A stretch of DNA of 64,000 nucleotides from the NCBI GenBank assembly GCA_942491735.1, contig CALOCN010000014.1, forward strand, positions 3,147,534 to 3,211,533, in the 5' to 3' direction. The stretch is from Candidatus Eiseniibacteriota bacterium (GTDB taxonomy: Bacteria; Eisenbacteria; RBG-16-71-46; JABDJR01). A model generated the notes under the pieces. The model was given only the letters and a program-made list of their open reading frames with translations, searched no databases and was not told the DNA's origin. The position numbers and the translations under genes are program-made. Positions 3,542 to 23,600 of the stretch are shown here, one piece after another (within the stretch, counting starts at the first letter, position 1; every line of letters starts with the position of its first letter).

Positions 3542-3667
3542 TGCAGCGTCTCCTTAAAGTCGTTTCGAGAGGCGGGAAAAGCGACGGAAGAGTATAGCGG
3601 GCGCTAGGTTGCCCTTCAAGCGGACACCTGGTTCGACACCAGACCCTCGAACAGCCCGATCATCCGT

Positions 3668-4736
3668 TCACCACCACGCTTGGGGCGAGGCCCCATGTCG
3701 AACCCGGTCCCGGGCTGCTGATCCCAATCGCTGCCCAAGGGCGGCATCCGCAGCCAATCTCACCATCGCGCCGGCCAGGGCGGCAACGTCTTCGGGAGGG
3801 ACCAGGAGTCCCTCCTTGCCCGAAACCAGGGTGTTCCGCAGGCTCTCCACATCCGTCGCCACCACCGGTAAGGCGTGGCTCATTGCCTCCATGACGCCAA
3901 GTGGATGACCTTCGAAGTGGGTGGCAAGGACAAAGAGGTCCGCATCCGCCAGATAGGGAGCGGGGTCGTCCACGAACCCGGTAAAGGTCACCTGATCCTC
4001 GAGTCCGAACCGAGACACCTCGGCGACAATACCGGGTCGGGTGGGGCCGTCCCCGACCAGGACAAGACGTGCCGGTGTCTCCTGGGTCAGGCGGGCAAAC
4101 GCCTGAACCAGGGTCCGATGGTCCTTCTGTGGCCTGAAGTTCGCCACGCTGACCACGGTCAGCGTCTCCCGGTCGGGCCTACGCTCTTGCGGTTCGGGGA
4201 GCCGCGCGAGCGCGTTGGGGATGAGAACAACACGCTCCGGAGAGGCCCAACCGTGGCCGGTGAGCAGGGTCTGGATCTCCTCGCTGATGGCGACATGCCG
4301 GCGAATCACACGCCCTCCCAGACGCGCAAGGAGTCGGGAGCCCTCGCGCCGGATGCCTCCCGCTGCTTGGGCGTCCTGAAGCGCACGGGGCGGATTGTGC
4401 CAGTGATAGACAACCGGAACCGGACACCCTCGGGGATCCAGGGCGAGAGCGACCGGAAGCGAGTAGCCGAAGTGCAGATGCACCACGTCGACCCCACGCA
4501 GCTTCACCAGGCGTCTCAGGGTGCGAGGGAATCCACGGGCCACGGGGTGGCGAATCGAGGGCAACACCAGGGACTCATCCGGTCCACCCATCCTCGGCAT
4601 CCAGGGGCTGGGCGTAGGGAAAGGCGATCGTCATGCGATGTCCGCGAGCACCCAGCGCCGCCTTCAGGTTCTCCATGGTGTCGATCATTCCGCCTGCAAA
4701 CGGAGGCGAGTAGTCGAGTACTTCCAGGACGTGCAT
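3668..4736 (-). CDS. family-4 glycosyltransferase, apparently frameshifted (N-terminal 54 aa in one frame, C-terminal 310 aa in another)
   Basis: ORF 4575..4817(-) encodes a GT4 N-terminus (MHVLEVLDYSPPFAGGM...ARGHRMT...DAEDGWTG*). ORF 3668..4600(-) continues in another frame (PDESLVLPSIRHP...EGHPLGVMEAMSHALPVVATDV = GT4 C-terminal EX7E region). Reading across 4580-4595 needs a 1-nt shift. Confidence 0.6.
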
Positions 4737-4738
4737 GG

Positions 4739-7008: not shown

Positions 7009-7980
7009 TTACGCGGTTCCGGGGCCCTCGTCCACCGCGCGCGGGCCCAGAAGCCACTCCTCGTCCACGGTGACGCTCCCCACCAGGGCCTCCATGGAGT
7101 CCATCCCGTGCCGGACCAGGTAGCCCCCCAGCCCGTCCACGATGCGGGCCGGGGTAGTGGGATCGGCGTAGACCGCGGTCCCCACCTGCACCGCCTTGCA
7201 CCCCGCGATGAGGAACTGCAGGGCATCGTCCGTGGTCCCGATGCCCCCGATCCCGATCACATCGCAGCCCAGGACCCGCAGTAGCTCCCAGCATTTGACC
7301 AGGGCCACCGGCCGGATGGCCGGACCGCTGAGACCACCCACACCCCGCTTGAGCACCGGGACCCGGCGCTCCACGTCCAGGGTCATCCCCAGCAGGGTGT
7401 TGATCGCGGCGAGACCGTCCGCCCCGGCATCCAGACAGGCCTTCCCCACATCGCTGATCCGGGTCACGTTCGGGGTCAGCTTGGCCCACACCGGCTTGCG
7501 CGTCACCGCACGCACCGCGGTCACCACCTGCGCGGCCAGGTGCGGGTGGGTGCTCATGTCGAGCCCCCCCTCCTTCACGTTGGGACAGGAGATGTTGAGT
7601 TCCAGGGCGTCGCAGCGGGGAACGGCGTCCAGGCGCTCGGCGAGGCGTGCGAAGTCCTCGGGCCCGTAGCCGCCGATGGAGACCACCACCCGCGTGTCGA
7701 TGCCCTCCATGAGCGGAAGTTTCTCGTCCAGATAGCGCTCGATCCCCACCCCCTCGAGACCAATCGAGTTGAGCATCCCGGCCGGGGTCTCGGCGATCCG
7801 ATGGGGCGGGTTCCCGGCACGGACCTCCTCGAAAATCGTCTTGGTGACCACCCCGCCAATCAGCGCCGGGTCCAGAATCGGCTTGAGGTCCGCGCCGTAA
7901 CCCCCTGTGCCGGAAGCAACCAGCACAGGATTCTTCAGAGCAAGTCCGCCGGCGACCATCGAGAGGTTCGGGCTATTCAT
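7009..7980 (-). CDS. pyrD: dihydroorotate dehydrogenase catalytic subunit (class 1B)
   Basis: The start is placed at MNSPNLSMVAGGLALKNPVLVASGT (class 1 DHOD N-terminus). It carries the NISCPN active-site Cys motif and sits next to pyrK. Confidence 0.85.
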   Translation of the reverse strand: MNSPNLSMVAGGLALKNPVLVASGTGGYGADLKPILDPALIGGVVTKTIFEEVRAGNPPHRIAETPAGMLNSIGLEGVGIERYLDEKLPLMEGIDTRVVVSIGGYGPEDFARLAERLDAVPRCDALELNISCPNVKEGGLDMSTHPHLAAQVVTAVRAVTRKPVWAKLTPNVTRISDVGKACLDAGADGLAAINTLLGMTLDVERRVPVLKRGVGGLSGPAIRPVALVKCWELLRVLGCDVIGIGGIGTTDDALQFLIAGCKAVQVGTAVYADPTTPARIVDGLGGYLVRHGMDSMEALVGSVTVDEEWLLGPRAVDEGPGTA

Positions 7981-8788
7981 GGGGCATCCGCTCCCAGTCG
8001 ATCCGGTGCGCCTCAACCACCGGGCCCTCCACGCACTGCATGAGGAACCGGGTTTCGTCGAGCAACGGAACCGCGCAGCCACGGCACAGGCCCAACCCGC
8101 ATCCGTACACCCCCTCCAGGCTCACCTGGCAGGCGAGGTCGTGTTCCTTGGCCAGTGCCGCGGTGTGTCGCAGGAGAATCTCGGGACCGCAGGCATAGAG
8201 CACCGGGTCGTCGGCCAGCCACTGGGGACGACCGGTCCGGATCGCGTCCAGCACGGTCCCGGCGTGCCCGAGGCTGCCGTCGTCCGTGGCCAGGAGCAGA
8301 TCCTGTTCCCCGATGCGATCGAGGGCAAAGAACAGGTCGCGGGAGCGGGCGCCGAAAGCAAACCGCAACGACGCATGCCCTTGATCCCGGAAGAGTCGGT
8401 ACAGGTAGAGAAGCGGCGCGGCGCCTCGGCCCCCCGCGACCAGAAGGGCGGGCCGGTCCGCATCCATGCGGTAGGGGGCGCCCAAAGGACCCAGGCAATC
8501 CACCGCGTCCCCTTCGCGCCATCGCGACATGGCCAGGGTGCCCTCGCCCACCACGCCGTAGAACAACTCGACGATGGCGGCGTCCGGGGTGCGTCGGAAC
8601 TCGACCACGCCGAAGGGGCGGCGAAAGATGGGATCCCGCGCCCCGCCGGTGCGCAGGTTCAGGTACTGACCGGGGAGCGGAGCGGGATAGTCGGGGGGGA
8701 AGGCCAGCTCGAGCCAGAAGAATCCGGGATGCGTCTCACGCTGGCGGTGCACACGCGCCCGGTCGAGTCGGGGTTCGACCGACGTCAT
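7973..8788 (-). CDS. pyrK: dihydroorotate dehydrogenase electron-transfer subunit
   Basis: 271 aa with an FNR-like fold (RPFGVVEF) and a C-terminal CGLGLCRGC 2Fe-2S cysteine cluster. Its stop lies 2 bp from the pyrD start. Confidence 0.85.
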   Translation of the reverse strand: MTSVEPRLDRARVHRQRETHPGFFWLELAFPPDYPAPLPGQYLNLRTGGARDPIFRRPFGVVEFRRTPDAAIVELFYGVVGEGTLAMSRWREGDAVDCLGPLGAPYRMDADRPALLVAGGRGAAPLLYLYRLFRDQGHASLRFAFGARSRDLFFALDRIGEQDLLLATDDGSLGHAGTVLDAIRTGRPQWLADDPVLYACGPEILLRHTAALAKEHDLACQVSLEGVYGCGLGLCRGCAVPLLDETRFLMQCVEGPVVEAHRIDWERMPHE

Positions 8789-8797
8789 AGACCTCCC

Positions 8798-11461
8798 CTA
8801 GTCCGCGCCGGGTTTGGCGTCGGGATCCTTGGTCGCCTTCGCGTCCTTCTTGGGCGTCTCATTTTTCTTCGGTGCCTCCGCGTCCTTCTTCGGCGCCTCC
8901 GCGTCCTTGGCCGGCTTGACCGCCGGCGGATCCTTCTTCGGCGGCTGGGTCGTCCGGGTGTTCCGCGGGGACTCCGGGCGGGCCACAGTCTCCGGGACGC
9001 CGGCCACCGGCGTCGCGCCCTTCATGACCGGAGTGTATCCGTCGGCCGGCACTTCATGGGGATCCAGCGTCTTGCCGCTGCGTCCCGTGGGAAGCGGTCG
9101 GACCGCCGGCACGGCCGCAACCGGTGCGGGGTCGCCATCTCCCGCCATGGCCGCTCCGGCGGTCACCGCGGCTCCGGTCGCCGCGGCCCCGGTCGCCGAG
9201 ACCGTGGCGGGATTCTGCACGACGCCATGACCGGCCGCATCGGCAGGCAGGGTGTTCTGCGCAACGGGTGCCGCTGCTCCCTGGGGGGGCGGGAGGGACG
9301 CCTCGCCCGGCTGACCGCCTTCGGCCGCATCCCGTCGTCTTCGCTCCAGGAGTTCCGCCTGGCGAGCCGCCATGCTCTGCGCCTCGGCGCTTGACTGGCC
9401 GGCCAGGGCGCCTGCCGCGGCCACCCCCGCGGCATCGCCCGTGCCGTTGGCCCCTGCCGTATTGGCTCCCGCTGGGTCGGCCGGGAGCCCCTGGGCTTCT
9501 CGCTGAGCCGCGGCCAGGGCCTGCTCGGCAAACTCCACGCTGTCCCGCGCCGCGAACAGGGCCAGGTTTTCCGGGTCCCGCAGCATGGCAAGGGTGGGGC
9601 CGTAGTAGTCCGCTTCCTCGGGTTCCCGAGCCGGACCCCGCAGGAGTCGCCGGGCGCGACGACCATACTCGGTGTTGGCATACTGGCGCATGACGTCGGC
9701 GTACTGGGCCCGGCCGCGTGCGGTGTCGGCCATCGCGTAGAACTGCACCCACGCCTGGGCCAACGCCGCCTTGCCCGCGTAGTCGGATCCGGCGAAATCG
9801 TTCTCGATCCCCCGATACTCCTCCAACGCGCGCTCCGGTTTGTCCTGCTGGAAGAGATAGAGTTCCGCCTTCATGAAACGCGCCTCGACCGCCGCCTTGT
9901 TCGCGGACCCCGACGTGTCCTGCGCCGTAGCCTGGAGCCGGGCCATGGTGTCCTTGAGGTTGCGCGCCTTGCGTTGCGCGGCGTCGGTGAAAGCCGAGCG
10001 TCCCTGGGTGGATACCTTCTCGTAGGCTGCTTGCGCCTCGGGAAAGTCCTCGAGGTAGATCTCGCAGGTGTAGCCGATCTGGTACTGGGCCTCGGCCGCG
10101 AACGGAGTGCGGGGATACTCCGCCACCACCTGCTCGTAGGCCTCGATCGCGTCCCACGGGCGCTCCATCTTGGCCAGCACCGTCCCCTCGCGCAGCATGA
10201 CCTTGGCCAGTTCACGTTCCGCTTCGTTGTTGATGTCACGCACCCGCTTGCGTTGCTGTTCCTGCTGGGCCTGGGCCTGGGCTCGCGCCGCGTTGGGGTC
10301 GACCTGGTTGGCCAACTCGGTCGGACTCGGCACGGTGACGCCCTGCGGCAGTTCGTCTTCGTTGTTGGGAAGGTTCGGATTCCGTGGGTCCGGGGACGGA
10401 TTCCCGGTGGTGTTGTTCGGGTTGTTCGGGTCGTTGGTGGCAAACAGGTTCGGATCGTTGGGGTTGGTCGAGGCCGGCGTCGCACCCCGCACGCCCAGGG
10501 AGTCCCCGTTGTCGGCCAGGAACTGCCGGGCCGCGATGGAGTCCTGGTAGGCAGCCTCCGCCGCGGCCTGGAGGTCCGCCTCCAGTTGCTGCCGCTCGGC
10601 CCCGCTCATCCGACCGCCGAAGACATTGGGATCGAGGTCCCGCGCCAAACCCACGTACAACCCATAGGCCTCGTCGAGACGCCCCTGTCGCTCGAAGCAG
10701 TCCCCCAGATGGAGAATCGCTTCCTGGCGTTGCTCGGCGTGGGGCGAACGGCCTGCGACCTGGTTGAAGTAGGACTCCGCCTCCTCGTACTGACCTCGTT
10801 CCAGGAGGACCCGGCCCAGACGCAGTCGCGCGTCCCACTCGCGGTCCCCACCCGGGTCGTCAGCGAGAAAGGCCAGAAAGGCGGCCTCCGCCGACTCGAG
10901 GTCCCGTTCGTTCCACTCCGCGTCGGCGAGCAGGTACTCCACTTCGTCCCGTTCGTCGAAATCCGGATAGGAGGCCAGCAACGTGGTCCAGGTCTCCGCC
11001 GCCGTCTCGTAGTTCTCCAGGGCAAACTCGGTTCGCCCCAGCCAGAACCAGGAATCGGGGACCAGGTTGCTGTCGGGAAAGCGCTGCGGGAAACGGGAGA
11101 ATCCCTGGCGCGCCGCGAGGTAGTCCCGCCGCCCGTAGTAGGCCTTGGCCCGCAGGAGATGGGCGTCGTCCTGCCACTTGCTGCCGGGGTAGTTGGCGAT
11201 CATCTTGTCGCACTTCTCGATGCAACTGTTGTAGAGGCCGGCCGAGCGGCTGCCGCGGGTGCCGCTCTGCGCGCTGAGGTTGGCGCCCGCGCGCGCCTCG
11301 GTGCGTGCCGCGCCCTCCGCGTCCCCGTAGTATTTCTTGGCGTGGTAGAAGGTGTTGTAGTAGGCGCACCCCCCGAGCGAGCCGGACAGGGACAGCACCA
11401 CCACCAGCGCGCCGGCGCCTCGAAGTGCTCTCCTGATCATCCTGCCCGGTGTCGCCATCAC
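8798..11461 (-). CDS. large TPR-repeat lipoprotein with low-complexity Asn/Pro-rich and Lys/Ala/Glu-repeat regions
   Basis: 887 aa. It has a signal peptide plus lipobox (LSGSLGGC) and many TPR-like helices. Internal NPNDPN...NPNNTTGNP and C-terminal KDAEAPKK repeats are visible in both the DNA and the protein. It ends 9 bp upstream of pyrK. Confidence 0.75.
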   Translation of the reverse strand: MMATPGRMIRRALRGAGALVVVLSLSGSLGGCAYYNTFYHAKKYYGDAEGAARTEARAGANLSAQSGTRGSRSAGLYNSCIEKCDKMIANYPGSKWQDDAHLLRAKAYYGRRDYLAARQGFSRFPQRFPDSNLVPDSWFWLGRTEFALENYETAAETWTTLLASYPDFDERDEVEYLLADAEWNERDLESAEAAFLAFLADDPGGDREWDARLRLGRVLLERGQYEEAESYFNQVAGRSPHAEQRQEAILHLGDCFERQGRLDEAYGLYVGLARDLDPNVFGGRMSGAERQQLEADLQAAAEAAYQDSIAARQFLADNGDSLGVRGATPASTNPNDPNLFATNDPNNPNNTTGNPSPDPRNPNLPNNEDELPQGVTVPSPTELANQVDPNAARAQAQAQQEQQRKRVRDINNEAERELAKVMLREGTVLAKMERPWDAIEAYEQVVAEYPRTPFAAEAQYQIGYTCEIYLEDFPEAQAAYEKVSTQGRSAFTDAAQRKARNLKDTMARLQATAQDTSGSANKAAVEARFMKAELYLFQQDKPERALEEYRGIENDFAGSDYAGKAALAQAWVQFYAMADTARGRAQYADVMRQYANTEYGRRARRLLRGPAREPEEADYYGPTLAMLRDPENLALFAARDSVEFAEQALAAAQREAQGLPADPAGANTAGANGTGDAAGVAAAGALAGQSSAEAQSMAARQAELLERRRRDAAEGGQPGEASLPPPQGAAAPVAQNTLPADAAGHGVVQNPATVSATGAAATGAAVTAGAAMAGDGDPAPVAAVPAVRPLPTGRSGKTLDPHEVPADGYTPVMKGATPVAGVPETVARPESPRNTRTTQPPKKDPPAVKPAKDAEAPKKDAEAPKKNETPKKDAKATKDPDAKPGAD

Positions 11462-11678
11462 GATGCGCGGTCTCCCTCTACCAGTAAGCCAATATACGAC
11501 AGATGCTTAGATTCTCCTACGGGGGGAGGGTCCCCCAACGAGCTACAACACACCCTTCAACCCTTGTACTACCCGTGAATCTCCTCGGAGTTCCCATCCG
11601 AAACCGAACCAACGCGGGCGCTAACACCCGCTCCCGTGGTCGGTTGGCCCCACCGCCCTGTTGGGTCACAATAGCCCG

Positions 11679-13127
11679 ATGAACAAGCGTCACCTCTGGG
11701 TTGCCGGCGCCCTGGCCGGGCTGTTCCTTGGCGGGTGTGCTTCCGGGCCCAAGCCCCGGGGGCTTGCCGGGGTCGGCGCCTGCGCGGTGGGGCCCACGGA
11801 GAACCAGGCACCGCGCCCCCTGCGGGTCCTGCTTTCCGACGCGGTGCTCCCCGAGCACGCGCCCAATCCCACCAACGAGGCGGAGCGTCTGGTCTTTCGG
11901 CAGCTCTACGCCGGTCTGGTGCGCTGGGACTGCGACGGCAAGGCCCAACCCGACCTGGCGCGGTCCTGGGAAGGGCGCGAAGCCGGTCGCATCTGGACCT
12001 TCACCCTGGAGTCGGAGGCCCGTTTCCATGACGGATCACCGATCGACGCCGGGTCGGTGCGCCGGGCCTGGACCGCGAACGCGGCTCGCCCCCGGGGTGG
12101 CGCCGGCGTCTGGGCCTGGGTGGATCCGGAGTCGGTGACCGTGGTGGATTCCCGGCGCCTGGAGGTACGGCTGCATCGCGCCCTCGAGGACGCCCCCATC
12201 CTGTTTGCCCACCCGGGACTGGCCGTCACCGGCGAGGCGACCCATCGGGATTGGCCGTCGGGATCGGGCCCCTACCGGGTGGCTTCGGTGTCCGCGAGCC
12301 GGTTGTCCCTGGAGCCGGCGCTCGACGACAAGGGACGCCCCCGCGCCCTGTCCCCCATTGACTTCGCCCTGCGGCCGGGGGATGACGTGCGGGACTGGCT
12401 GGCCGAGGCCGACCTCGCCCTCACCCGCCTCCCCGCGGTGCGGGAGTTCGCCGGGACGCTGGGTTTCGCCGAGGCCGACCTCGGTCCCACCCACGCCTAT
12501 GTGCTGATCTCCCCCCGGCTCGACGGCGCGGAGCCGGCCAGGATGGACCCCGGGTTGCGTGAGGACCTGGTCCGCGACGCGACCGGGAACGCGCGGGCGC
12601 CCGGGTTCGACCTGTTGTGGATTCCGTGGCAGGAGAGCCCGCAGCCTACCGAAACACTCCTGGGCACCCGCAACCGCATCGTCTTTGGCCCCGACGCCGA
12701 GGCGCGCCGGTTGGCCGAGCGTCTCAGCGCAGTGACCCGGGCCGGCGACACCGGCGCCACCGACGACGTTCTGGCCCGCGTCTTTCCCGATGCCAACGAC
12801 ACGGAGCCGTCCGCGGTGGAGTTGACATCCGAGGCGCTGGCGCGGGCGGTGGGGGACGGGCAGGACCGCGCCTATGTCCTGGCCCTTCGCCGATTCGACT
12901 CCGGATACGCCACCGCGATCGCCGGTCTCAGCGGCGCCCCCTGGTTGGCCGGCCTGCCGGTGATGCGTGGCGTGGCCGATCCCCAGGCGCTGCAGGGGGC
13001 CCTGGCCCCGCTTCTGGAGACCCGCACCACGGTGCTGTATCGCGGGGACCTCGGGCCCTTCCGGATCGACGGCGACGGGACCCTCCGGTTGGAAGCGGCC
13101 GGCGGGCCGGTGGAGCCGTTGCCGTGA
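11679..13127 (+). CDS. family-5 solute-binding-protein-like lipoprotein
   Basis: MNKRHLWVAGALAGLFLGGCASG gives a lipoprotein signal. LARSWEGREAGRIWTFTLESEARFHDGSPIDAGSV matches the SBP_bac_5 signature. Its stop overlaps the kinase GTG start (GTGA). Confidence 0.75.
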   Translation: MNKRHLWVAGALAGLFLGGCASGPKPRGLAGVGACAVGPTENQAPRPLRVLLSDAVLPEHAPNPTNEAERLVFRQLYAGLVRWDCDGKAQPDLARSWEGREAGRIWTFTLESEARFHDGSPIDAGSVRRAWTANAARPRGGAGVWAWVDPESVTVVDSRRLEVRLHRALEDAPILFAHPGLAVTGEATHRDWPSGSGPYRVASVSASRLSLEPALDDKGRPRALSPIDFALRPGDDVRDWLAEADLALTRLPAVREFAGTLGFAEADLGPTHAYVLISPRLDGAEPARMDPGLREDLVRDATGNARAPGFDLLWIPWQESPQPTETLLGTRNRIVFGPDAEARRLAERLSAVTRAGDTGATDDVLARVFPDANDTEPSAVELTSEALARAVGDGQDRAYVLALRRFDSGYATAIAGLSGAPWLAGLPVMRGVADPQALQGALAPLLETRTTVLYRGDLGPFRIDGDGTLRLEAAGGPVEPLP

Positions 13128-14875
13128 GTCTCCGGCTACGCATTCTCCTGGGGTCCTGTCTGTTGGCGTTGATCCCCATTCTCGTGCTCGGGATCGGGGT
13201 GCGGCACGAGGTCACCGCCCGGCTCTCGGGCCAGTACACCGAGAACGTCGAGGCCATGGCGGCCTACCTGGAGACCGAGTTCACCGAGGAGTCCTCGGAG
13301 CTCGAGGTCAAGCTCACCGCCCTCGCGGCGGAGATCCGCGAGGACAACCGTTTTCGGCTGGCCCTGCTCGACGAGGCGGGCGGCGCCGACGAGGCTCCCT
13401 ACCTGCGGGACTTTGCCCAGCGGGCCATGGGACTGATGGGTCTCGCGGTGCTCCAGGTCCAGGATGCGCGGGGACGGATCCTGAGTTCGGGTCACTTCCG
13501 CAACGAGTACGGTCGGGAAGAACTCCAGGTGCTCCGGGCCCTGGCCGCCGCTCCCCAGGGCACCGGCCTCCTCAACGCCCGCACCCCCGAGGGAACGCTG
13601 CTGGGGTTGGCCCGGGTGGACTCGTTGCGGATGGGCGCGACGCGTTTGTACCTGGTCGCCGGCATCCCCATCGAGCGCCGCTTCCTACGGGGGCTCGCTC
13701 CACGCGGGTCGGTCACCCTCGTGCACCCGGGCGGCGTGCGCTCCAGCGACAACACACTCGCGGCGCGCATGGATTCCGTCCTTGCCGCGGGGGGGCCCTG
13801 GCGCGATGCCCTGCCCACGACCGCCTATCGGGTCCTCACCCACCCGGTTCCCATGGTGGTCGCATCGGGCGAAGACGCGAAGCTGGTCCAGGCGCAGTTC
13901 GTGGTGAGCTATCCCCTCGATGCCCTCACCCGGACCACCCGCAACCTGACCCTGTGGCTGCTGGTCGCCGGCGGGGTGGTCGCGGCCGGTGCGTTGGGCT
14001 TCGCGATCTGGCTTTCCTTCCGCCTGAGTCGACCCATCGCGGAGTTGGCCCGGGCCACCACCACCATCGACCTGGACCGGCTGGAGACCCGGCTCCCGGC
14101 CGGCCGCAGCGACGAGGTGGGCACCCTGTCCCGGTTCCTGGTCGACATGACCCGGCGTCTGCGGGCCAGCGCGAGCCGGTTGCAACAGGCGGAACGCCGG
14201 GCCACCCGGGGCGAGCTGGCGCGCCAGATCAATCACGACATCCGCAACGGCCTCACCCCCATCCGCAATGTGTTGCGGCATGTGTCCTCGGTGGCCGAGG
14301 AGTCCCCGGATCAGCTTCCCGCGGTCTACGCGGAACGCCGGGCAACGCTCGAGTCCAGCGTGGAGTACCTGGAGACCCTGGCCGCCAACTACGCGCGCCT
14401 CTCCCCCCGGATGGTGCGGGAGGCGACCGATGTGAACGGGGTGATCCGCGAGGCGGTCCACGAGGACGACGGCGCCCGGGTGCAGTTGCGGCTGGAGTCG
14501 CGATTGCCCCGGGCCATGGTGGACCCGGTTTCGTTGCGGCGCATCGTGGAGAACCTGGTGCGCAACGGGATCGAGAGCCTCGAGGGCGGGGGCACGGTCA
14601 CGGTGACCACGGAGTCCGCGGAAGACACGGTGCGGGTCACGGTGCGCGATACCGGAGTGGGGATCCCGGAGGAAGAGCAGGACCGGGTCTTCCAGGACTT
14701 CTTCAGCACCAAGGAGAGCGGGTCCGGGTTGGGGCTCTCCATCGTGCGCCGCCTGGTTTCGGACAATCATGGACGACTGACATTGACCAGCACCACCGGA
14801 GCGGGAACCTCGGTCAGCTTCACCCTGCCCCGGGCGACGGGTGCGGCGGCGAGTCCCGGCAAGGAGCCTTCATGA
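13124..14875 (+). CDS. sensor histidine kinase (two TM segments, ~270-aa periplasmic domain, HAMP, HisKA, HATPase)
   Basis: GTG start in VSLRLRILLGSCLLALIPILVLGI (TM1). TM2 is LTLWLLVAGGVVAAGALGFAIWL. The H-box is ELARQINHDIRNGLTP, and the N and G boxes are VRNGIESL and DTGVGIP...GSGLGLSIV. Its stop overlaps the regulator ATG (ATGA). Confidence 0.85.
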   Translation: MSLRLRILLGSCLLALIPILVLGIGVRHEVTARLSGQYTENVEAMAAYLETEFTEESSELEVKLTALAAEIREDNRFRLALLDEAGGADEAPYLRDFAQRAMGLMGLAVLQVQDARGRILSSGHFRNEYGREELQVLRALAAAPQGTGLLNARTPEGTLLGLARVDSLRMGATRLYLVAGIPIERRFLRGLAPRGSVTLVHPGGVRSSDNTLAARMDSVLAAGGPWRDALPTTAYRVLTHPVPMVVASGEDAKLVQAQFVVSYPLDALTRTTRNLTLWLLVAGGVVAAGALGFAIWLSFRLSRPIAELARATTTIDLDRLETRLPAGRSDEVGTLSRFLVDMTRRLRASASRLQQAERRATRGELARQINHDIRNGLTPIRNVLRHVSSVAEESPDQLPAVYAERRATLESSVEYLETLAANYARLSPRMVREATDVNGVIREAVHEDDGARVQLRLESRLPRAMVDPVSLRRIVENLVRNGIESLEGGGTVTVTTESAEDTVRVTVRDTGVGIPEEEQDRVFQDFFSTKESGSGLGLSIVRRLVSDNHGRLTLTSTTGAGTSVSFTLPRATGAAASPGKEPS

Positions 14876-16233
14876 GCGTTGTTCTTGTTGTCGACGATGT
14901 CCCGGCCCTGTGCGAGCAGTACGCCTACGATCTGAAACGGATCGGCGGCTACGGGACGCTCACCGCGACCTCGGGGCGCCAGGCCCTGGACATGCTGGAG
15001 AGCGAGGCGGTGGACTGCATGGTCCTGGACCTGGAAATGCCCGGCATGGACGGGTTCGAGGTGCTGACCCGCCTCGCGGAGGAACGGCGCACCCTCCCGG
15101 TCATCGTCTACACCAGCACCGGGGACTTCGATCGCTGTGTCCGGGCGGTCAAGCTGGGAGCCCACGGGTTCATCGACAAGTCGGAACCGGTGGAGCGGGT
15201 GGCGCACGAGATCGCCAACGCCCTGGAACGGTCGCGGCTGCGGGGCGAGGTGTCGGAATTGCGGCGGCGCCTGGGGTCGGAGTCCCCTCTCCTGGGGGAA
15301 AGCCCGGCCATGGAGACCCTACGGACCCGGATCGGCAAGCTGGCCCCCATCCCGAGCCCGGTCCTGATCCTGGGGGAAAGCGGAACCGGCAAGGAACTGG
15401 TGGCGCGGGCGCTGCACACCGGCAGCGGCCGCAAGGGGTCCTTCCTGGCCATCAACTGTGCCGCGCTCCCGGAGAACCTGGTGGAGAGCGAGCTCTTTGG
15501 CCATGAGAAGGGCGCGTTCACCGGGGCGGAACGGCTTCGCCGCGGTGCGTTCGAGTCCGCGGCGGGAGGGACGCTCTTTCTCGATGAGATCGGCGAGCTG
15601 CCCCAGGCCATGCAGGCCAAGATGCTGCGGGTGCTGGAGGAATCGGTGGTGACCCGGGTGGGGGGCACGCGCACCGTCGCGGTCACCGCGCGGGTGGTGG
15701 CGGCGACCAACCGCAACCTGGATCACGAGGTGACCGAGGGGCGCTTTCGCGAGGACCTGCTCTACCGGCTCAACGTGCACACGGTGGCGGTCCCGCCGTT
15801 GCGGGAGCGGCTGGGGGATGTGCCGCTGTTGGCGGCGCGGTTCGTGGAGTCGGTCTGCGCGAACCTGGGCGTGCGGGCCAAGAACCTGGACCCGGACGCA
15901 ACGCGGGTGCTCAAGGCGTACGACTGGAAACGCAACAACGTGCGCGAGCTGCGCAATATCGTGGAGCGCATGGTCATCGCCGCGGACGGGGAAACGATCG
16001 AGGCGGAGCATGTCCCGGACGAGGTGCTGGAAGGCGGACCACGCCCCCAGGGGGGCGGGCCCGCGGTGACGCTCAAGGATCGCAAGCTGGAGGCGGAGCG
16101 CGGGATCCTGGTGGAGGCGTTGGAGCGCAACGACTGGCACATCACGAATACCGCGAAGGAGCTGGGGCTGGCGGACCATGCGAGCCTGCTCAAGATCATG
16201 CGGCGACATGACCTGAAACGCCCGGGGTCGTAG
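14872..16233 (+). CDS. sigma-54-dependent response regulator (NtrC family: REC + AAA+ + HTH)
   Basis: Receiver domain (VLVVDD...LDLEMPGMDG), Walker A (GESGTGKE), GAFTGA motif (GHEKGAFTGAE) and a C-terminal Fis-type HTH. Confidence 0.9.
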   Translation: MSVVLVVDDVPALCEQYAYDLKRIGGYGTLTATSGRQALDMLESEAVDCMVLDLEMPGMDGFEVLTRLAEERRTLPVIVYTSTGDFDRCVRAVKLGAHGFIDKSEPVERVAHEIANALERSRLRGEVSELRRRLGSESPLLGESPAMETLRTRIGKLAPIPSPVLILGESGTGKELVARALHTGSGRKGSFLAINCAALPENLVESELFGHEKGAFTGAERLRRGAFESAAGGTLFLDEIGELPQAMQAKMLRVLEESVVTRVGGTRTVAVTARVVAATNRNLDHEVTEGRFREDLLYRLNVHTVAVPPLRERLGDVPLLAARFVESVCANLGVRAKNLDPDATRVLKAYDWKRNNVRELRNIVERMVIAADGETIEAEHVPDEVLEGGPRPQGGGPAVTLKDRKLEAERGILVEALERNDWHITNTAKELGLADHASLLKIMRRHDLKRPGS

Positions 16234-16286
16234 GGAACGAACCCCGGGCGCATCGTACGGTCTGGACCAGGGACCCTATCCCTGTA

Positions 16287-18632
16287 CTAGAACCCGAACC
16301 CTCCCGTGGGGACGTACACTTTCTTCCATGCCGTCCAGTCACTGTACTGCGTGCCGCTGGTCACGGCACGGACCTTGTACTTCCACCACTGGCCCTGGGT
16401 GGGCGTGGCGTCGTTGTAGCTCGTCGTCGACGAAGTGAACGTGGCCGGGGTTCCCGAGGGCCAGGGCTGACGCTCGATCTCGTAGTGGTCGATGGTCCCG
16501 CAGGTTGCCGTCGAGGCACTCCAGGACACGTTAACCACGCCGGGAATCGCGCCCAGGGTGAGGCCGCTGGGGCTTGTTGCGTACGGAATCGTGATCTCCA
16601 ACTCCCCGGTTCCGATCGAGAGCACACTGCTCGCGTTCTCCGCGAACACCTCGTAGTCGTGCAGGGTGGTGGAACAGGAAGAGACGGATGCATCCTGGTA
16701 GTACGTATTGGTGGTGCGGGCGAGCTCGGCCCCATCCCGGTACACGACGTATTCGTCCAGGCATCCGTTCGAGGGAACCGCGTCCCAGGTCAGCGTGACC
16801 GGGAACCCCGCCGAAGCGGTCGCGTCGGCCAGGTTGGTCGGTGCATCCACCGACGTGGCGTTCAGGTTGGTCGCCGAGGATACCCGGTCCACCTCGTCCA
16901 CCGACTTGACCTGGTAGGTCACGGTCGTGCAGCCCGCAGCCCCGGTGTCCTCATACTCCAGGGCGAGCCCGGTGTAGATGGGGGTCCCTCCCCCGTTTCG
17001 ATACAGGCGGTACTCCGTCACTTGCGAGTAGGTCCCATCCGCGGCGTTCCAGGCTATCGTGGGAGGGTTTCCCACGGTCTGAGTCACCGTGCTGGGAGGG
17101 TACGGATCGGTTCGATCGGCAACGTAGGTGCCGCCGACCTGCACCGAACCCAGCGTTGCGTGCGTAGCGGTCACGGAGAAGGTGTGCACACCCTCGGGTG
17201 CGTTTCCTCCTTCATAGACCAACGCCACGTCAACGACCTCGGTCTGCCCTCCCCCCACGCTGATGCTGGAGACCATGCTCAGCGAGAAGCCCGTCGGTGG
17301 CGTACCGGAGAGGCTGAAGAGCTCGGCTGCACCACAGCTGTTGTTGGTCAGATGGAGATCGAAGGGAACGGTCACCAGGCCGGACTTGGGTAATCCGGCG
17401 TTGACCACGCGATTCTCATCGAACGAGGCGGTTGGACCCGCCGGCGTGTAGGTGACGTCGACCGTGGCGCCGCTGGAGTCGCTGCTGACAAAGTCGATGG
17501 TGATCCCATCCAGGGTGATCGACGAGTTGGTGGCGTCGAGAATCGCCTCCAACTCGGACTCGAGGCCATCCTCGCGCTGGACGAGGACCTTCGAGAAGTA
17601 GTCCACTCCCCACACGCTGGTGTTCCCGGTCATGGAGCGGAAAAAGCTGGTGCCATCGAAGGATCCCGCCACCGGGTATCGATAGGACAGGTAGAGACTG
17701 TAAGTCCCGCCGTCGACACGCAGGACCTGGGGGTCCGTCCCCGGGGTCGCGGCCAAGGGGGCGATGGCCTGGCCCGAGACATCGCAGCTGATGACTTCCG
17801 GGCTCACCCACCCCGCCTGCACCTTGTGGTACCCGTGGAAGTGTCGATGAGGGAGGTTGTTCCCACCGAGAACCGGGGACCCCATTACGCAGGACAGGTC
17901 ACGGTAGCCTACCCCGACGTTGCCGAGGTTACCCGAGGGAACCGAAGGATCATGGTCGTCCGCATGCCGAATCAGGAAATTGTCCCGGATCCGGTGTCCC
18001 AGTTCATGGGAAAAGAATCCTGGAATATGCCAGGCATTGACCTCGATGTTCATCTCACCACCGGCCGCCTCCCCGGCCTGGCCCCCGCACTCGTTCTGGG
18101 CATTCGGGGTCACCCAGATCACCCGTTGGAACTGACCAGGAGTCTCCAGGTCGTAGCCTTCCGTCAGGGCCTGGGCGATCGCCTTTTCCTGCCAGCACGG
18201 CTTGTCGCATGGGCTGTCGTCGATTTCGCCGCAATCCTCGTTCGGGTCGAGGGTCGACATCACATAGGGGCCAAGAACCGTCCCGCTTATCTGTAGTGCG
18301 CCGTACGACATCTCCTCGAACAGCTCAGCCACCGAGAAGTCGTTCTCGGAGTCCCACAACGTTTCGAGGTAGGTGCCGGCGCTTGCGTCGAACATGATCT
18401 CGTCAATGATGGTGGCTGCCTCGTCCCCATCTGCGGCGGGAGACCAATCGGAGCCCACCGGCTCCACCAGGACCACCGCGACACTCATGGTATCGACCGA
18501 GGCGAGACCGAAGAGTCCGGGGGCGCTCCCGGGTCGGGTCGGAATTCCGTTCTCGTCGCTCTCGCCACAGGAGAGAGTCAACACGGCCAACAACAGCGTC
18601 AGGGGAATCAACAGTCGTTTGGAGTACCACAT
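16287..18632 (-). CDS. secreted zinc metallopeptidase lipoprotein (HExxH) with C-terminal Fn3/Ig-like beta-sandwich repeats
   Basis: The start is placed at MWYSKRLLIPLTLLLAVLTLSCGES (lipobox). The HELGH zinc motif is present, with repeated Thr/Ser-rich beta-rich modules (YRLYRNGG..., YVVYRDGAEL...) resembling Fn3 C-terminally. GC looks somewhat lower than in neighbouring genes. Confidence 0.75.
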   Translation of the reverse strand: MWYSKRLLIPLTLLLAVLTLSCGESDENGIPTRPGSAPGLFGLASVDTMSVAVVLVEPVGSDWSPAADGDEAATIIDEIMFDASAGTYLETLWDSENDFSVAELFEEMSYGALQISGTVLGPYVMSTLDPNEDCGEIDDSPCDKPCWQEKAIAQALTEGYDLETPGQFQRVIWVTPNAQNECGGQAGEAAGGEMNIEVNAWHIPGFFSHELGHRIRDNFLIRHADDHDPSVPSGNLGNVGVGYRDLSCVMGSPVLGGNNLPHRHFHGYHKVQAGWVSPEVISCDVSGQAIAPLAATPGTDPQVLRVDGGTYSLYLSYRYPVAGSFDGTSFFRSMTGNTSVWGVDYFSKVLVQREDGLESELEAILDATNSSITLDGITIDFVSSDSSGATVDVTYTPAGPTASFDENRVVNAGLPKSGLVTVPFDLHLTNNSCGAAELFSLSGTPPTGFSLSMVSSISVGGGQTEVVDVALVYEGGNAPEGVHTFSVTATHATLGSVQVGGTYVADRTDPYPPSTVTQTVGNPPTIAWNAADGTYSQVTEYRLYRNGGGTPIYTGLALEYEDTGAAGCTTVTYQVKSVDEVDRVSSATNLNATSVDAPTNLADATASAGFPVTLTWDAVPSNGCLDEYVVYRDGAELARTTNTYYQDASVSSCSTTLHDYEVFAENASSVLSIGTGELEITIPYATSPSGLTLGAIPGVVNVSWSASTATCGTIDHYEIERQPWPSGTPATFTSSTTSYNDATPTQGQWWKYKVRAVTSGTQYSDWTAWKKVYVPTGGFGF

Positions 18633-18955
18633 GGCAATCACCCTCTTGATTGGTAGATGGATGGCGGCCACGCGCCTTGAGTCCTGGGGTGTTTGCCTGG
18701 GTGTTGGGGACGGCAGGGCCAAGTAGCCGCCTACGATTTCGAGCACTCTCGCGCTCTCATACACACGCTAGCAAGCGACAGTATGCTCGGCTCTGCCCGG
18801 CTCGCATAGTCCCTTCGTTGTGCTCACGCATAGCGGAGTGTGTTCAGATGGACACCTCCGCCTGTGTCCGCCTGAACACGAGCGCTGGAACCCGCAACGC
18901 AAGCTCCGATCGCAACCAATTGATAGGACACTGATTAGGAAAGCAAACATCTATT

Positions 18956-18971
18956 TGGCCCGACTCCTGCT
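18956..18971 (+). promoter_or_regulatory. candidate sigma-54 (-24/-12) promoter TGGCCCGACTCCTGCT upstream of the TPR and OMP genes
   Basis: GG and GC elements sit at consensus spacing (TGGCAC-N5-TTGC), with one mismatch in each half. It lies ~105 bp upstream of the 19078 ATG, and two sigma-54 activators are encoded in the window. Confidence 0.3.
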
Positions 18972-19077
18972 TTAACCAACTCCCATAGCCCACAACGGGC
19001 CGCTTCGGAGGATCCACTCCGGAGCACACCGAACTTCGGCGACGCGTTCCGGCGCCGGGTTCACGGAGGGAGTCAAC

Positions 19078-20019
19078 ATGTCCAAGTCCACCACCCCCAT
19101 CGAAGCCAACCCCAAGACCGTACGGGCGGTGAGCCTCTCGCTCCTGCTTGGCTCCGGATTCCTCTTTGCCGGTGTCGGCGACGTCGCCGGCACCCAGGAC
19201 CCCGAGGTCCCGCGGACCTCGGACATCGTCTACGACCAGACGCAGCAGTACCCGCTCACTCTCGACGAGGCCATGGAGAGCTACCGGGAAGGCAACTACG
19301 AGGAAGCGCAGCTCTTCTTCTCCGAGTACGTCCGCCTGCGGCCCCAGGTGGCCTGGGGTCACTACATGCTCGGTCTGTGCGCCTGGAAGTCGGGTGACCT
19401 GGAGGCGGCGGAGCAGAGCCTCCTGCGTTCCGCCGAGCTGGGCCCGGAGAACCCCAAGGCCCGCATCAACCTGTGCCGCGTGCTCATGGACGCGGGACGG
19501 CACGAGGAAGCCCTGGATCACTGCCTGCTCGCCCAGGGAACCTGGCCCGAGAACGCCGAGGCGCACCGGGTGGCCGGACGCGCGCATCAGAACCTGGGAC
19601 AGCCCAACGAGGCAATCACCGCCTACCAGCACGCGCTGATCGCGGATCCCGAAGACGCCTGGTCCATGAACAACCTGGGCCTGGTCTACATCCACCAGGG
19701 TCGCTACGAGCAGGCCCTGGAACCGCTCGCCCGCGCCACCGAGCTGCGCAACGAGCCGGTCTTCTACAACAACCTCGGTATTGCTCTCGAACGAAGCGGC
19801 TATCCGGTGGCGGCGCGTGACGCCTATGCCGAAGCGGTGCGGCGCTCCGCGTCCTACACCCGGGCGGAAGACAACTTCAACCGCCTTGAGTCCATGGATG
19901 GATTGGTGTCCGGGGACCCCGGGCTCCCCATCCTCGCCGACCGCTTCGAGACGACCATCGGCACCTGGAGATCCTCCGAGGTGGCCAGTACGAACACCGC
20001 GACCGACTCCGATCGCTGA
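19078..20019 (+). CDS. TPR-repeat protein (secreted or membrane-anchored)
   Basis: 313 aa with an N-terminal hydrophobic segment and at least five TPR-like repeats (AWGHYMLGLC..., AEAHRVAGRAH..., AWSMNNLGLVY...). Confidence 0.7.
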   Translation: MSKSTTPIEANPKTVRAVSLSLLLGSGFLFAGVGDVAGTQDPEVPRTSDIVYDQTQQYPLTLDEAMESYREGNYEEAQLFFSEYVRLRPQVAWGHYMLGLCAWKSGDLEAAEQSLLRSAELGPENPKARINLCRVLMDAGRHEEALDHCLLAQGTWPENAEAHRVAGRAHQNLGQPNEAITAYQHALIADPEDAWSMNNLGLVYIHQGRYEQALEPLARATELRNEPVFYNNLGIALERSGYPVAARDAYAEAVRRSASYTRAEDNFNRLESMDGLVSGDPGLPILADRFETTIGTWRSSEVASTNTATDSDR

Positions 20020-20105
20020 GCTTCCTCGAGAGCAACCCCCCGGGTCCTTCCGCCTTCGGGCGGGGGGGCCCGGTCTTTTTGAAACCCGTTACCAAGGAGG
20101 AACCC

Positions 20106-20579
20106 ATGCGAAGCCGAATTTTCCGCCGAGCCTTATCGATATCCACCCTGGCCGCGGCGTTGAGCCTTCCCGTCGTTGCCCACGCGCATCCCTTCGGTCT
20201 GGGAGTGATGGTCGGTGAGCCCACCGGGCTCTCCGGGAAGCAGTGGCTTGGTTCCCACTCCGCGGTCGACTTCGGGGCCTCGTGGGCCCTGGAGAAGAAC
20301 GAGAACCTGCACCTGCACGCCGACTACCTCTGGCACTCGGCCGGGTTCATCAGCTCATCCGAACCCGAGCTGGGAGCGTACATCGGAGTGGGAGGGCGCG
20401 TGCTCTTCCTGGAGAACTCGGAGGACCGGATCGGGGTCCGGGTGCCCCTGGGAGTGAGCTATCAGTTCTCACAGAACCGATTCGAGCTGTTCTTCGAGGT
20501 GGCTCCGGTCGTGGACCTGGTCCCCGATACCGAGACCGACCTCGGGGGCGGGATCGGGCTCCGCTACCAGTTCCGGTAG
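20106..20579 (+). CDS. small outer-membrane beta-barrel protein (signal peptide, alternating hydrophobic strands)
   Basis: MRSRIFRRALSISTLAAALSLPVVAHA is a signal peptide, followed by amphipathic beta-strand patterning and a C-terminal LRYQFR. An alternative start lies at 20079. Confidence 0.55.
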   Translation: MRSRIFRRALSISTLAAALSLPVVAHAHPFGLGVMVGEPTGLSGKQWLGSHSAVDFGASWALEKNENLHLHADYLWHSAGFISSSEPELGAYIGVGGRVLFLENSEDRIGVRVPLGVSYQFSQNRFELFFEVAPVVDLVPDTETDLGGGIGLRYQFR

Positions 20580-20686: not shown

Positions 20687-23600
20687 CTATTCGCTGCCTA
20701 CCTTGACCGGTCTCGCTTCCCCCATGCTCTGCAACGCCCGCACCTGGAACCCGCCCTTGAGAATCGCCTCGATCCCGCACACCGCCGCCGCCGCCCCGGG
20801 GAGCGTGGTCACGCAGGGCACACCCTGTTCCATGGCGGCAAGGCGGATCACCCGGTCGTCGGACTTGGACTTGCGACCCAGGGGGGTGTTGAGCACGAGG
20901 TGGACCTTGCCGTCGCGGATCATGTCCACCGCGGTCGGGCTGCCCTCCCCGACCTTGTGGATGGCGGTCACCGGGACGCCGTTCATGCGCAGGAACCGCT
21001 CCGTGCCCTCGGTCGCGACCAGATCGAACTGCATTGAAACAAGCTGCTTGGCCAGGAACACCACCGCACGTTTGTCCGCGTCGCGCACGGAGAGAAACAC
21101 GGTGCCGCTGGTGGGAAGCGGCTCCCCTGCCGCGGCCTGGGCCTTGGCGTACGCTTCGCCGAAGTCCGCCCCGGTGCCCATCACTTCTCCGGTCGACTTC
21201 ATCTCCGGGCCCAGGAGGGTGTCCTCGCCGGGAAAGCGGTCGAATGGGAGCACCGGTTTCTTGACGCTGACCAGGTCGCGGCGGGACATGGTTTCGGGGG
21301 TGTCCTTCAGCGACCCACCCAGGAGCGCCTTCACGGCAAGAGGAACCAGCGGAATCCCCGCCGCCTTGCTCACGAAGGGCACGGTGCGGGACGCACGCGG
21401 GTTGGCCTCGATGATGTAGATCGCATCCCCCTTCACCGCGTACTGCACGTTGATGAGACCACACACCTTGAACGCCCGCGCCAGTTGTGCCGTCATGTCC
21501 TTGAGGAGCTGCTCGGTGGTCGCGCCAATGCTGTAGGGCGGGGTGAGGCAGGAACTGTCCCCCGAATGCACGCCGGCTTCCTCGATGTGCTCCAGCACCG
21601 CGCCCACGATGACCGTCTTGCCGTCGCTCACCGCGTCAACGTCCAGTTCCACCGCGTCCTCCAGGAACGCGTCGAGCAGCACCGGCGCCTGGGGAGAGAT
21701 GGTGATGCCCTCGGCGATGAGGAGTTCCAGTTCCGTGCGGGCATAGATCGTGCGCATCCCCTGGCCGCCCAGGACGAACGAAGGACGGACCAGCACCGGG
21801 TAGCCAATCCGCTCCGCCTCCTGGATGAGGTCTTCGCGCCGGGTGGCGATGCGGCTCCTGGGCTGGGTGAGCCCCAGGCGCTGGATGAGCGCCCGGAAGG
21901 TGTCCCGGTTCTCGGCGTCGTCGATGGCCTGGGGCTGGGTTCCCAGGATGGGGATACGGGCCCGCTCGATGGGCCGGGCCAGCTTGAGCGGGGTCTGTCC
22001 GCCGAACTGCAACACCACCCCGCCCGGTCGCTCCTTCTCCAGCACGTTGAGGACATGTTCCTCGGTGAGCGGCTCGAAATAGAGCCGGTCGCTGACGTCG
22101 TAATCGGTGGAGACGGTCTCGGGGTTGGAGTTGATGAAGATGACGGGACGCCCGGAGGCCCGGATGGACTGGGCCGCCTGGACACAGCAGTAGTCGAACT
22201 CCACCCCCTGGCCAATGCGGTTGGGGCCGGAGCCCAGGACCGCCACCGCGCTCTCGCCCAGGGGTTCCCCCTCGTCCTCGGACTCGTAGGTGGAGTAGAA
22301 GTACGGGGTCTCGGCCGGGAACTCCGCGGCGCAGGTGTCCACCGCCTTGAAGGTGGGGCGCACGTCGAGGCGGAGCCGCAGGGCGCGAACGTCCGGTTCG
22401 GGAAGGTCGATGAGCCCGGCAATCCACGCGTCGGTGAGCCCCTGGCGCTTGGCCCGCCGCATGAGCGTCGCCGCGGCTTCCGTGTCGTTGGCCTTGAGCA
22501 GCTTGGGCAAGCGAGTGCGGATGGCCTGTTCCGTGGCGATGATCTCGGCCATGCGATCCAGGAACCACAGGTCCACCCCGGTGAGGTCCGCCAGTTGCTG
22601 TGGGGTGTGTCCGCGGCGCAGGGCGTGGAGAAGCAGGAACGGTCGTCGCCAGGTGGGCCGGGCCAGGTTCGCGTCATCCAGGGCACCCCGAGTGAACGCG
22701 GTGCCGCTGATCAAGGTGTCCACGTTGTCGATCTCGAGGCTCACCAGGGCCTTGATATAGGCCTCGGTGAAGGTACGACCAATGGCCATGACCTCCCCCA
22801 CCGACTTCATGCGCGTGGTCAGAGTGTCGTCGGCGAGAGGGAACTTGTTGAAGTTCCAGCGCGGGACCTTCACCACCACATAGTCCAGGCTGGGCTCGAA
22901 GCAGGCGGGGGTGACCCGGGTGATGTCGTTGGGAATGGCATCGAGCGTCTCGCCGCTGGCCAGACGGGCTGCGATCTTGGCGATGGGAAACCCGGTCGCC
23001 TTGCTGGCCAGGGCGCTGGAGCGGGAGACCCGCGGGTTCATCTCGATGATGACGATGCGCCCGTCCCTGGGGTTGAGGCCGAACTGGACGTTGGAGCCGC
23101 CGGTGTCGACCCCTACCGCGCGCAGGGTTTCCAGCGAGTAGTCGCGCAGGCGTTGGTACTCGCGGTCCGTGAGGGTCTGGATAGGGGCCACGGTGACCGA
23201 GTCCCCGGTGTGTACCCCCATGGGGTCCAGGTTCTCGATCCCGCACACGATGACCGCGTTGTCCGCGCCGTCCCGCATGACCTCGAGCTCGAACTCCTTC
23301 CAGCCGGTGAGGTCCTCCTCGATGAGCACGGTGGAAACCGGCGAGAGACGCAGGGCATCCTTGGTGATGCGGGTCAGTTCGTCGTGGTTGGTGGCGCGTC
23401 CGCCCCCCGCTCCGCCCAGGGTGAAGCTGGGACGGAGGATGACCGGGAAGCCGATCTCGTTGGCGAGTCGGGTTGCTTCTTCCAGGGAACGGGCGAACCC
23501 GGATTCGGGGAGAGGAATGCCGGCCTCGCGCATGGTGTCGCGGAAACGATCCCGGTCTTCGGCCTTCTGGATCGCTTCCGGCGTGGCGCCGATCATCTTG

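Follow-up and report, generated by a model that had tools for sequence, protein, structure and literature searches.

Kinases assisted by a solute-binding protein (SBP) are thought to be widespread, with few identified so far, and the genes of kinase-stimulating SBPs adjoin signalling genes (PMC8050422). Here we describe a candidate system of this kind in a 64,000-nucleotide stretch of DNA from a Candidatus Eiseniibacteriota bacterium (assembly GCA_942491735.1, contig CALOCN010000014.1, positions 3,147,534 to 3,211,533 of the forward strand). This whole stretch is referred to below as the window, and coordinates are positions within it unless a related locus is named. The window has ~67% G+C. 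Three of its + strand genes (11679–13127, 13124–14875 and 14872–16233) encode an SBP-like lipoprotein of family 5 (SBP5), a sensor histidine kinase and an NtrC-type regulator. A fourth gene, further downstream, encodes a tetratricopeptide repeat (TPR) protein preceded by a predicted sigma-54-type promoter.

That an SBP5 protein can pair with a kinase is known from the chitin sensor of Vibrio, in which the SBP_bac_5 protein CBP (VC_0620) regulates ChiS, a kinase with an unannotated dCache-like periplasmic domain (PMC8050422). CBP differs from the protein described here in that it also serves an ATP-binding cassette (ABC) transporter and is encoded together with it. The arsenite-sensing system AioX/AioS/AioR resembles our locus in its architecture: a dedicated periplasmic SBP that is encoded with signalling genes and not with transporters, and a membrane kinase (PMC8050422), together with a sigma-54 activator of the NtrC type. 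The two systems differ in their parts. AioX is a Phosphonate-bd protein (PF12974), whereas the SBP-like protein of the window belongs to SBP_bac_5; the sensor of AioS is sCache-like, whereas that of the window kinase is dCache-like; and the output is the arsenite oxidase aioBA in one case and a TPR protein in the other. AioR itself is sigma-54-dependent.

LuxP/LuxQ and TorT/TorS also use dedicated SBPs that are not encoded with transporters and act as constitutive partners of the kinase sensor domain. LuxP belongs to the Peripla_BP_4 family and not to SBP_bac_5, and TorT is of the same sugar-binding type; LuxQ and TorS are hybrid kinases, and neither system has a sigma-54 output. A general mark of SBP-dependent "three-component" systems is an SBP gene that keeps company with signalling genes instead of transporter genes, and the locus shows it. 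With the SBP5 proteins of Opp/Dpp/Nik-type ABC importers the SBP-like protein shares a complete cluster-C fold, as far as its model can tell, and it differs from them by the lack of nearby cognate permease and ATPase genes.

The closest relative, although a distant one, is found in Myxococcus. Its kinase CrdS, which has two transmembrane (TM) segments and senses in the periplasm, phosphorylates CrdA, an NtrC-like protein; that the crdS operon of Myxococcales includes an SBP_bac5 gene was already noted by Willett and Kirby in 2011 (PMC3147164). When CrdS/CrdA was described, its input signal and the targets of CrdA had not been determined, and the same applied to the role of the SBP_bac5 gene in Myxococcus (PMC3147164). 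In the light of CBP-ChiS, AioX-AioS-AioR and the SBP_bac5 gene of the crdS operon (PMC8050422, PMC3147164), the first-pass annotation of this DNA went too far when it treated the pairing of an SBP5 protein with a kinase as not characterised. What is new is the four-part module present in multiple phyla, its dCache-like sensor without Pfam annotation, and the TPR gene as its conserved predicted output.

The three overlapping genes and their conservation

The genes at the core of the locus are the following.

11679–13127, + strand: SBP5-fold lipoprotein, 482 aa (Pfam SBP_bac_5; AlphaFold2 (AF2) model and Foldseek; family alignment)
13124–14875, + strand: sensor histidine kinase, 583 aa (Pfam HAMP and HATPase_c; AF2 model; hydrophobic segments)
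14872–16233, + strand: NtrC-type sigma-54 enhancer-binding response regulator, 453 aa (Pfam; motifs; identity to homologues)

At the first junction (ccGTGAgt), the GTG start of the kinase gene at 13124 shares 4 bp with the TGA stop of the SBP-like gene. At the second (tcATGAgc), the regulator ATG at 14872 shares 4 bp with the kinase stop. Both junction reads agree with the first-pass annotation, which had described three genes coupled by GTGA and ATGA overlaps. The identities that it had assigned to the products also stood up, as set out below.

The SBP-like protein starts with MNKRHLWVAGALAGLFLGGC and carries the lipobox L17-G18-G19-C20. Its sole Pfam match is SBP_bac_5 (E 7e-19), which covers the N-terminal half only. 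The AF2 model (pLDDT 78, pTM 0.79) was matched best by Foldseek to NikA, CntA and OppA, and also to MppA, with E values of ~1e-20 over the full length; the alignments to NikA, CntA and OppA span ~520 columns with TM-scores of 0.57–0.60. Pfam, the lipobox Cys20 and Foldseek therefore all agree with a family-5 SBP homologue with a lipobox. Since the model aligns with cluster-C SBPs over its whole length, the protein is predicted to have a complete two-lobed SBP5 fold of this cluster and to be no remnant. Besides the lipobox Cys, C35 and C85 are invariant across the family (motifs A-C-x-[VL] and V-D-C), and a disulfide between them probably holds the N-terminal extension against lobe I. The family is rare and divergent, with few detectable relatives (29 matches in 5.8 billion sequences). 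Among PDB sequences, its profile matches MppA best, over the N-terminal lobe only. SBP_bac_5 proteins have no clear ligand preference, with peptides making up almost half of the known ligands (PMC10443332).

In the kinase, hydrophobic segments at residues ~7–26 (TM1) and ~277–299 (TM2) enclose ~250 periplasmic residues (~27–276). The large periplasmic domain was thus correctly predicted in the first pass, where its length had been put at ~270 aa. The histidine of the dimerisation and histidine phosphotransfer (DHp) domain is H371 in HDIRNGLTPI. No Pfam family matched residues 27–276. The model of the N-terminus (pLDDT 81.5) consists of a long helix followed by two alpha/beta modules, and its nearest solved folds are the DctB sensor (E 3e-7) and then the dCache ligand-binding domains of the chemoreceptors PctD, TlpQ and Tlp3. 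By its predicted fold, the periplasmic domain can therefore be assigned as dCache-like, although it matches no Pfam family.

This sensor domain defines a sizeable family that spans several poorly studied phyla. An exhaustive search with a profile built from 43 sensors of the window family yielded 830 representatives at E<=1e-3, counted at 50% clustering, and 263 at E<=1e-30; a word-indexed search with the same 43-sequence alignment gave fragments only. Full-length kinases of the family mostly measure ~550–610 aa, and nearly all of those in which the H-box could be located carry it as HD[IVL][KR]NGL.P[ILV]. Among the top 150 members, D follows the His in every full-length kinase with a located H-box, and position +5 is G in nearly all of them.

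The regulator matches Response_reg, Sigma54_activat, AAA_lid_14 and HTH_8 in Pfam. Its receiver domain contains the acidic residues D8/D9 and DLEMPG from residue 53, its AAA+ domain has a Walker A motif (GESGTGKE) at 168 and GAFTGA at 214, and a Fis-type helix-turn-helix (HTH) lies at the C-terminus. The combination of receiver, GAFTGA-bearing AAA+ domain and Fis-type HTH is what the earlier label of an NtrC-type sigma-54 activator called for.

A genome scan with a motif of the SBP-like family recovered 59 species-level loci, which came from Gemmatimonadota, Eisenbacteria, Krumholzibacteria, Acidobacteriota/Thermoanaerobaculia and one Fibrobacteraceae metagenome-assembled genome. Locus L061 comes from a metagenome-assembled genome assigned to Gemmatimonas aurantiaca. 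The order SBP-like gene, kinase, regulator was observed in ~50 of these 59. The kinases of those loci have a periplasmic domain homologous to that of the window (31–47% identity), and regulators of homologous loci are 57–67% identical to the window regulator. The overlaps are retained as well: the SBP-like and kinase genes share 4 bp in 34 of the 43 assessable loci, while the kinase and regulator genes, assessed in ~41 loci, overlap by 4 bp in 25 and by 1 bp in 8 further ones. To judge from these sequences, the arrangement of the three genes goes far beyond what chance would produce.

Transporter genes were sought around the SBP-like gene. Among the window open reading frames (ORFs) from 64 to 31065 we found no ABC component, and the 11 kb upstream and 14 kb downstream of the SBP5-like gene contain no cognate permease or ATPase gene. 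A Walker-A/LSGGQ screen of 63 loci and the first 27 kb of the window detected 4 ABC-ATPase-like ORFs, none of them within 4.4 kb of the SBP-like gene. The ORF survey and the screen thus confirm that no ABC permease or ATPase gene is adjacent, as had been noted at the outset, and the pairing of an SBP5 gene with a kinase gene apart from transporter genes recurs in the related loci.

Mean pairwise identity across 27 loci rises from 40% for the SBP-like protein through 48% for the kinase sensor and 57% for the cytoplasmic part of the kinase to 66% for the regulator. Along the signalling path, evolution is thus fastest at the input end and slowest at the DNA-binding end.

Eisenbacteria-type loci encode another, more distantly related NtrC-like regulator just upstream of the SBP-like gene (L005, 2419–3834; L006, 7852–9273; L015, 7733–9247; L065, within 1470–5789).

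The TPR gene and its control region

Clustering of all locus ORFs revealed a TPR gene that follows the regulator gene directly, on the same strand, in 34 loci. Most of the encoded homologues have ~340 aa and a lipoprotein signal. The window contains a counterpart with the following elements around it.

18840–18855: upstream activator site 1, palindrome GTGTTCAGATGGACAC (cross-locus alignment)
18864–18879: upstream activator site 2, palindrome GTGTCCGCCTGAACAC (its start 24 bp from that of site 1)
18911–18955: AT-rich spacer (38% G+C, against 67% G+C in the genome)
18956–18971, + strand: predicted sigma-54-type -24/-12 promoter TGGCCCGACTCCTGCT (GG-N10-GC; cross-locus alignment), with a transcription start predicted near 18982
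19078–20019, + strand: conserved predicted target gene for a TPR protein of 313 aa, exported or anchored (ORF clustering across loci)
20040–20073, + strand: strong intrinsic terminator (15-bp stem with 12 G-C pairs, T-run), which closes the monocistronic TPR unit

The control elements emerged from an alignment of the regions before the TPR genes, which share a -24/-12 element, TGGCC-N6-C[CT]TGC, and, further upstream, two GTGTCC-N4-GGACAC palindromes. With <=1 mismatch allowed, 67 palindromes were found in ~1 Mb of loci, and 55 of the 67 are located upstream of a TPR gene. Another 10 could not be classified; most of them follow a regulator with a TPR gene that had been cut off or was missed by the clustering. 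The palindromes form 27 tandem pairs, spaced mostly by 24 or 34 bp. For 24 of these 27, a TGGY-N7-YTGC element is present 51–98 nt downstream on the same strand, a 32-fold enrichment over background. AT-rich stretches occur at the equivalent place in other loci; the spacer at 18911–18955 is a possible bending region or one of the integration host factor (IHF) type.

Like the overlapping three-gene operon, the palindromes, the predicted sigma-54 promoter and the TPR gene are conserved in at least four phyla. Because the palindromes cluster before the TPR gene, the promoter element follows 24 of the 27 pairs and a terminator closes the unit, the TPR gene is best understood as the single, dedicated and conserved predicted sigma-54 target of the circuit. 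The output half, from the regulator through palindromes and promoter to the TPR protein, is well supported by these comparisons as a prediction. By this evidence, the genes for the SBP5-fold protein, the dCache-like kinase and the sigma-54 activator pass on as a unit with one clearly marked target promoter, which makes the system testable through a reporter-ready promoter and a defined operator.

A window-wide search for TGGCAC-N5-TTGC with 1 mismatch returned 2 matches, where 3.8 were expected. The site at 18956 has 2 mismatches to this pattern and was recognised only by cross-locus comparison. The first-pass annotation had named the sigma-54-like promoter at 18956 and a secreted Zn-metalloprotease as plausible outputs. 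The promoter has stood the comparison, being conserved and facing the TPR gene at 19078; the protease has not, for reasons given in the next section. No sigma-70-like promoter was found in 11400–20300.

Autoregulation was considered for the window and rejected, as neither a palindrome nor a -24/-12 site is present upstream of its SBP gene. In L041, a Thermoanaerobaculia chromosome, the weak palindrome-like sequences GTGTCCAGCTCGACAC and GTGTCCGAGGGGGCAC lie at 9782–9818, 60–80 nt before the SBP ORF as called there. The position of these two sites before the SBP ORF suggests autoregulation in the L041 lineage only.

In the window, the regulator and TPR genes are separated by one further gene.

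16287–18764, − strand: Zn-metalloprotease-like lipoprotein gene (HELGH; weak M6 and FN3 matches)

The probable start of the protease is M45 at 18632; a lipobox follows Met45, and the C-terminus contains FN3-like repeats. The gene points towards the regulator gene (convergent) and away from the TPR gene (divergent). It had been described as divergently placed, which does not apply to its position relative to the operon, and the + strand site at 18956 faces the TPR gene. The other loci yielded no counterpart of the protease, as no shared ORF cluster contains it. To judge by this distribution, the gene looks like a lineage-specific insertion that splits the regulator from its target.

Two unrelated peptidases occupy the same slot in different lineages. 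Five Krumholzibacteria-type loci (L021, L024, L029, L034 and L060) have a + strand gene for an S49/SppA-like peptidase of ~860 aa between the regulator and TPR genes, where the window has the M6-like protease. This may be a coincidence, or it may link the circuit to periplasmic proteolysis or peptides.

The proposed mechanism and its alternatives

We consider the locus to encode a four-part envelope-sensing circuit, made up of the SBP-like lipoprotein, the kinase, the regulator and the TPR output, with a probability of about one half. In such a circuit, the SBP-like lipoprotein would capture a periplasmic ligand in the cleft between its lobes. Either the liganded or the unliganded protein would then dock on the dCache-like domain of the kinase and shift the balance between kinase and phosphatase activity. 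The kinase would phosphorylate the regulator, which would oligomerise on the two palindromes and activate the sigma-54 holoenzyme at 18956. The TPR protein made in this way might act in the envelope as an effector or as a feedback adaptor.

The role of the SBP-like protein as a co-sensor of the kinase is plausible and the most likely reading of the input half. We infer it from the conserved overlap of the SBP-like and kinase genes, the missing nearby transporter genes, the intact SBP fold and the precedent of known systems (PMC8050422). Among the latter, ChiS, VirA, MbaA and ScrC are listed by Matilla and Krell as SBP-dependent receptors with unannotated dCache-like sensors (PMC8050422). Several observations weigh against such a role. 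Since dCache domains such as that of DctB bind ligands directly, the kinase may not need a partner. Three loci keep an intact SBP-like gene (L003, 9199–10530; L004, 3–1313; L039, 8371–9717) where the kinase, regulator and TPR genes are missing; they show the usual Gemmatimonadales synteny of glyoxalase, SBP, acyltransferase and major facilitator superfamily (MFS) genes. The SBP-like protein can therefore persist alone. Finally, a mirror-tree analysis of 27 loci gave a partial r of 0.22 between SBP and sensor, against 0.21 for the SBP-regulator control, so that nothing rose above the phylogenetic background.

These points lend weight to a different explanation, in which the dCache-like domain of the kinase detects the signal itself and the co-transcribed SBP-like lipoprotein serves another purpose: it might scavenge or buffer the same compound or, in the way that the orphan MppA works with Opp, hand it to a distant transporter. 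The nearest solved folds of the sensor (DctB, PctD, TlpQ and Tlp3) are all direct ligand binders, the SBP-only loci and the missing co-evolution signal fit a separate function, and the best PDB sequence relative of the SBP-like profile is MppA, itself an orphan SBP5 protein. On the other side, the stop/start overlap with the kinase gene has been kept across phyla, none of the loci has an ABC-ATPase-like ORF within 4.4 kb of the SBP-like gene, and an SBP that supplies a transporter is typically encoded alongside it (PMC8050422). We regard direct sensing as somewhat unlikely. An ordinary transport SBP, with its ABC partner elsewhere in the genome and next to the two-component genes through co-regulation only, is quite unlikely. 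The complete SBP5 fold would suit it, and the inspection covered 64 kb of the genome and ~20 kb for each related locus. However, the family is rare and divergent, with only the N-terminal half reaching the Pfam model, its gene lies upstream of one kinase family with overlapping codons, and permease and ATPase genes do not adjoin it. At the output end, control of the neighbouring metalloprotease by the regulator is highly improbable. Seen from the opposite strand, the palindromes do lie ~75–250 bp upstream of the candidate protease starts (18764 or 18632), an enhancer site can work whichever way it is oriented, and the S49/SppA-like protease of Krumholzibacteria-type loci fills the same slot. 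Yet none of the other loci encodes a homologue of the protease, and it is the + strand that carries the conserved -24/-12 element. On the minus strand, nothing convincing of this type precedes the gene: the best candidate, CGGAGCTTGCGTTGCG (18893–18908), fits only 7 of 11 positions, and the palindromes would fall between it and the protease gene, on the transcribed side and not upstream. We have therefore rejected the protease as an output.

The proposed circuit can also be set against CrdS/CrdA, a developmental regulator of Myxococcus described in PMC3147164, PMC3510030 and PMC3892784. The primer and strain tables of PMC3510030 allowed us to rebuild the alpha-1 motif of CrdS, RLAHEIKNPLTPIRM, and we scanned metagenomes with its back-translation. 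The CrdS side of the comparison accordingly consists of metagenomic kinases that carry the exact RLAHEIKNPLTPIRM, as proxies of M. xanthus CrdS. The profile of 43 window-family sensors matches these proxies over positions 1–290 (E 1e-17 to 3e-29), and both groups share an N-terminal M-x-LR-x-R and the motif G-x-[IV]-LSSGH. In the CrdS-like locus L073, the genes for a penicillin-binding protein (PBP), an FG-GAP protein, an SBP_bac_5 protein and the kinase follow each other in the order published for the crdS operon, with the SBP_bac_5 gene (Pfam E 2e-8) 10 nt before the kinase gene. Both systems thus combine a membrane kinase, in which two TM segments enclose a periplasmic sensor, with an NtrC-like sigma-54 activator, and in both a gene with an SBP_bac5 domain stands directly upstream of the kinase gene.

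The differences are considerable. In the cytoplasmic half, kinases of the window family and CrdS-like kinases are ~30% identical. Kinases of the window family have HDI[KR]NGL as their H-box where CrdS has HEIKNPL, and the window kinase has HDIRNGLTPIRNVLRH in place of the CrdS DHp signature HEIKNPLTPIRM..ET. The SBP-like proteins can barely be aligned (hhalign E 0.09, a marginal value), and hmmsearch with the SBP-like profile found nothing in the CrdS-like loci. The PBP1a and FG-GAP genes of the crdS operon are absent from the window module, the regulator is followed by a TPR gene without an OmpA domain instead of the OmpA-domain lipoprotein CrdB, and the CrdS-like loci lack the palindromes of the window family. 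Overall, the kinase sensor is a distant homologue of CrdS-type sensors, and the module is a distant relative of CrdS/CrdA.

The number of the DHp histidine, His371, which is shared with CrdS, was judged to be a coincidence: the proxies start at a conserved MRLRTRL, have ~549 aa and carry the His near 342. The upstream region of L065 also contains a kinase fragment and an 827-aa FG-GAP protein. This is the only homologous locus in which an FG-GAP gene was seen, and it recalls the crdS operon of Myxococcales.

A broader idea, which we offer tentatively and hold to be unlikely, is that the module and the Myxococcus CrdS/CrdA operon with its PBP1a gene together represent an ancient envelope-surveillance circuit. 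In it, the SBP5-like lipoprotein without a transporter would report periplasmic peptides or muropeptides to the dCache-like kinase, and the TPR protein, as sigma-54 output, would tune the assembly of the cell wall or the outer membrane. MppA, the best PDB sequence relative of the SBP-like family profile, binds a murein tripeptide. If this idea were true, the cis-elements described above would offer a first handle on the signal and targets of CrdS/CrdA-type systems.

Genomic surroundings

The ORFs flanking the module encode pyrimidine enzymes, TPR proteins, envelope polysaccharide enzymes and MurJ. Pyrimidine-biosynthesis genes are found on both sides (7009–8788 and 20687–25972), with dihydroorotate dehydrogenase and its Fe-S subunit on one side and carB, a DUF5677 gene and carA on the other. 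Immediately before the SBP-like gene, a divergent − strand gene (8798–11461) encodes an 887-aa protein rich in TPR and YbgF/CpoB-like repeats (TIGR02795, E 2e-37); the gene is not kept beside the module in other loci.

Further upstream, on the − strand at 64–6298, lies an envelope polysaccharide cluster with genes for a UDP-GlcNAc 2-epimerase, an NAD-dependent epimerase/dehydratase, a UDP-glucose dehydrogenase, a GT4 glycosyltransferase and a MurJ-type flippase. Near the other end of the window, a very large − strand ORF of 1717 aa occupies 58811–63964.

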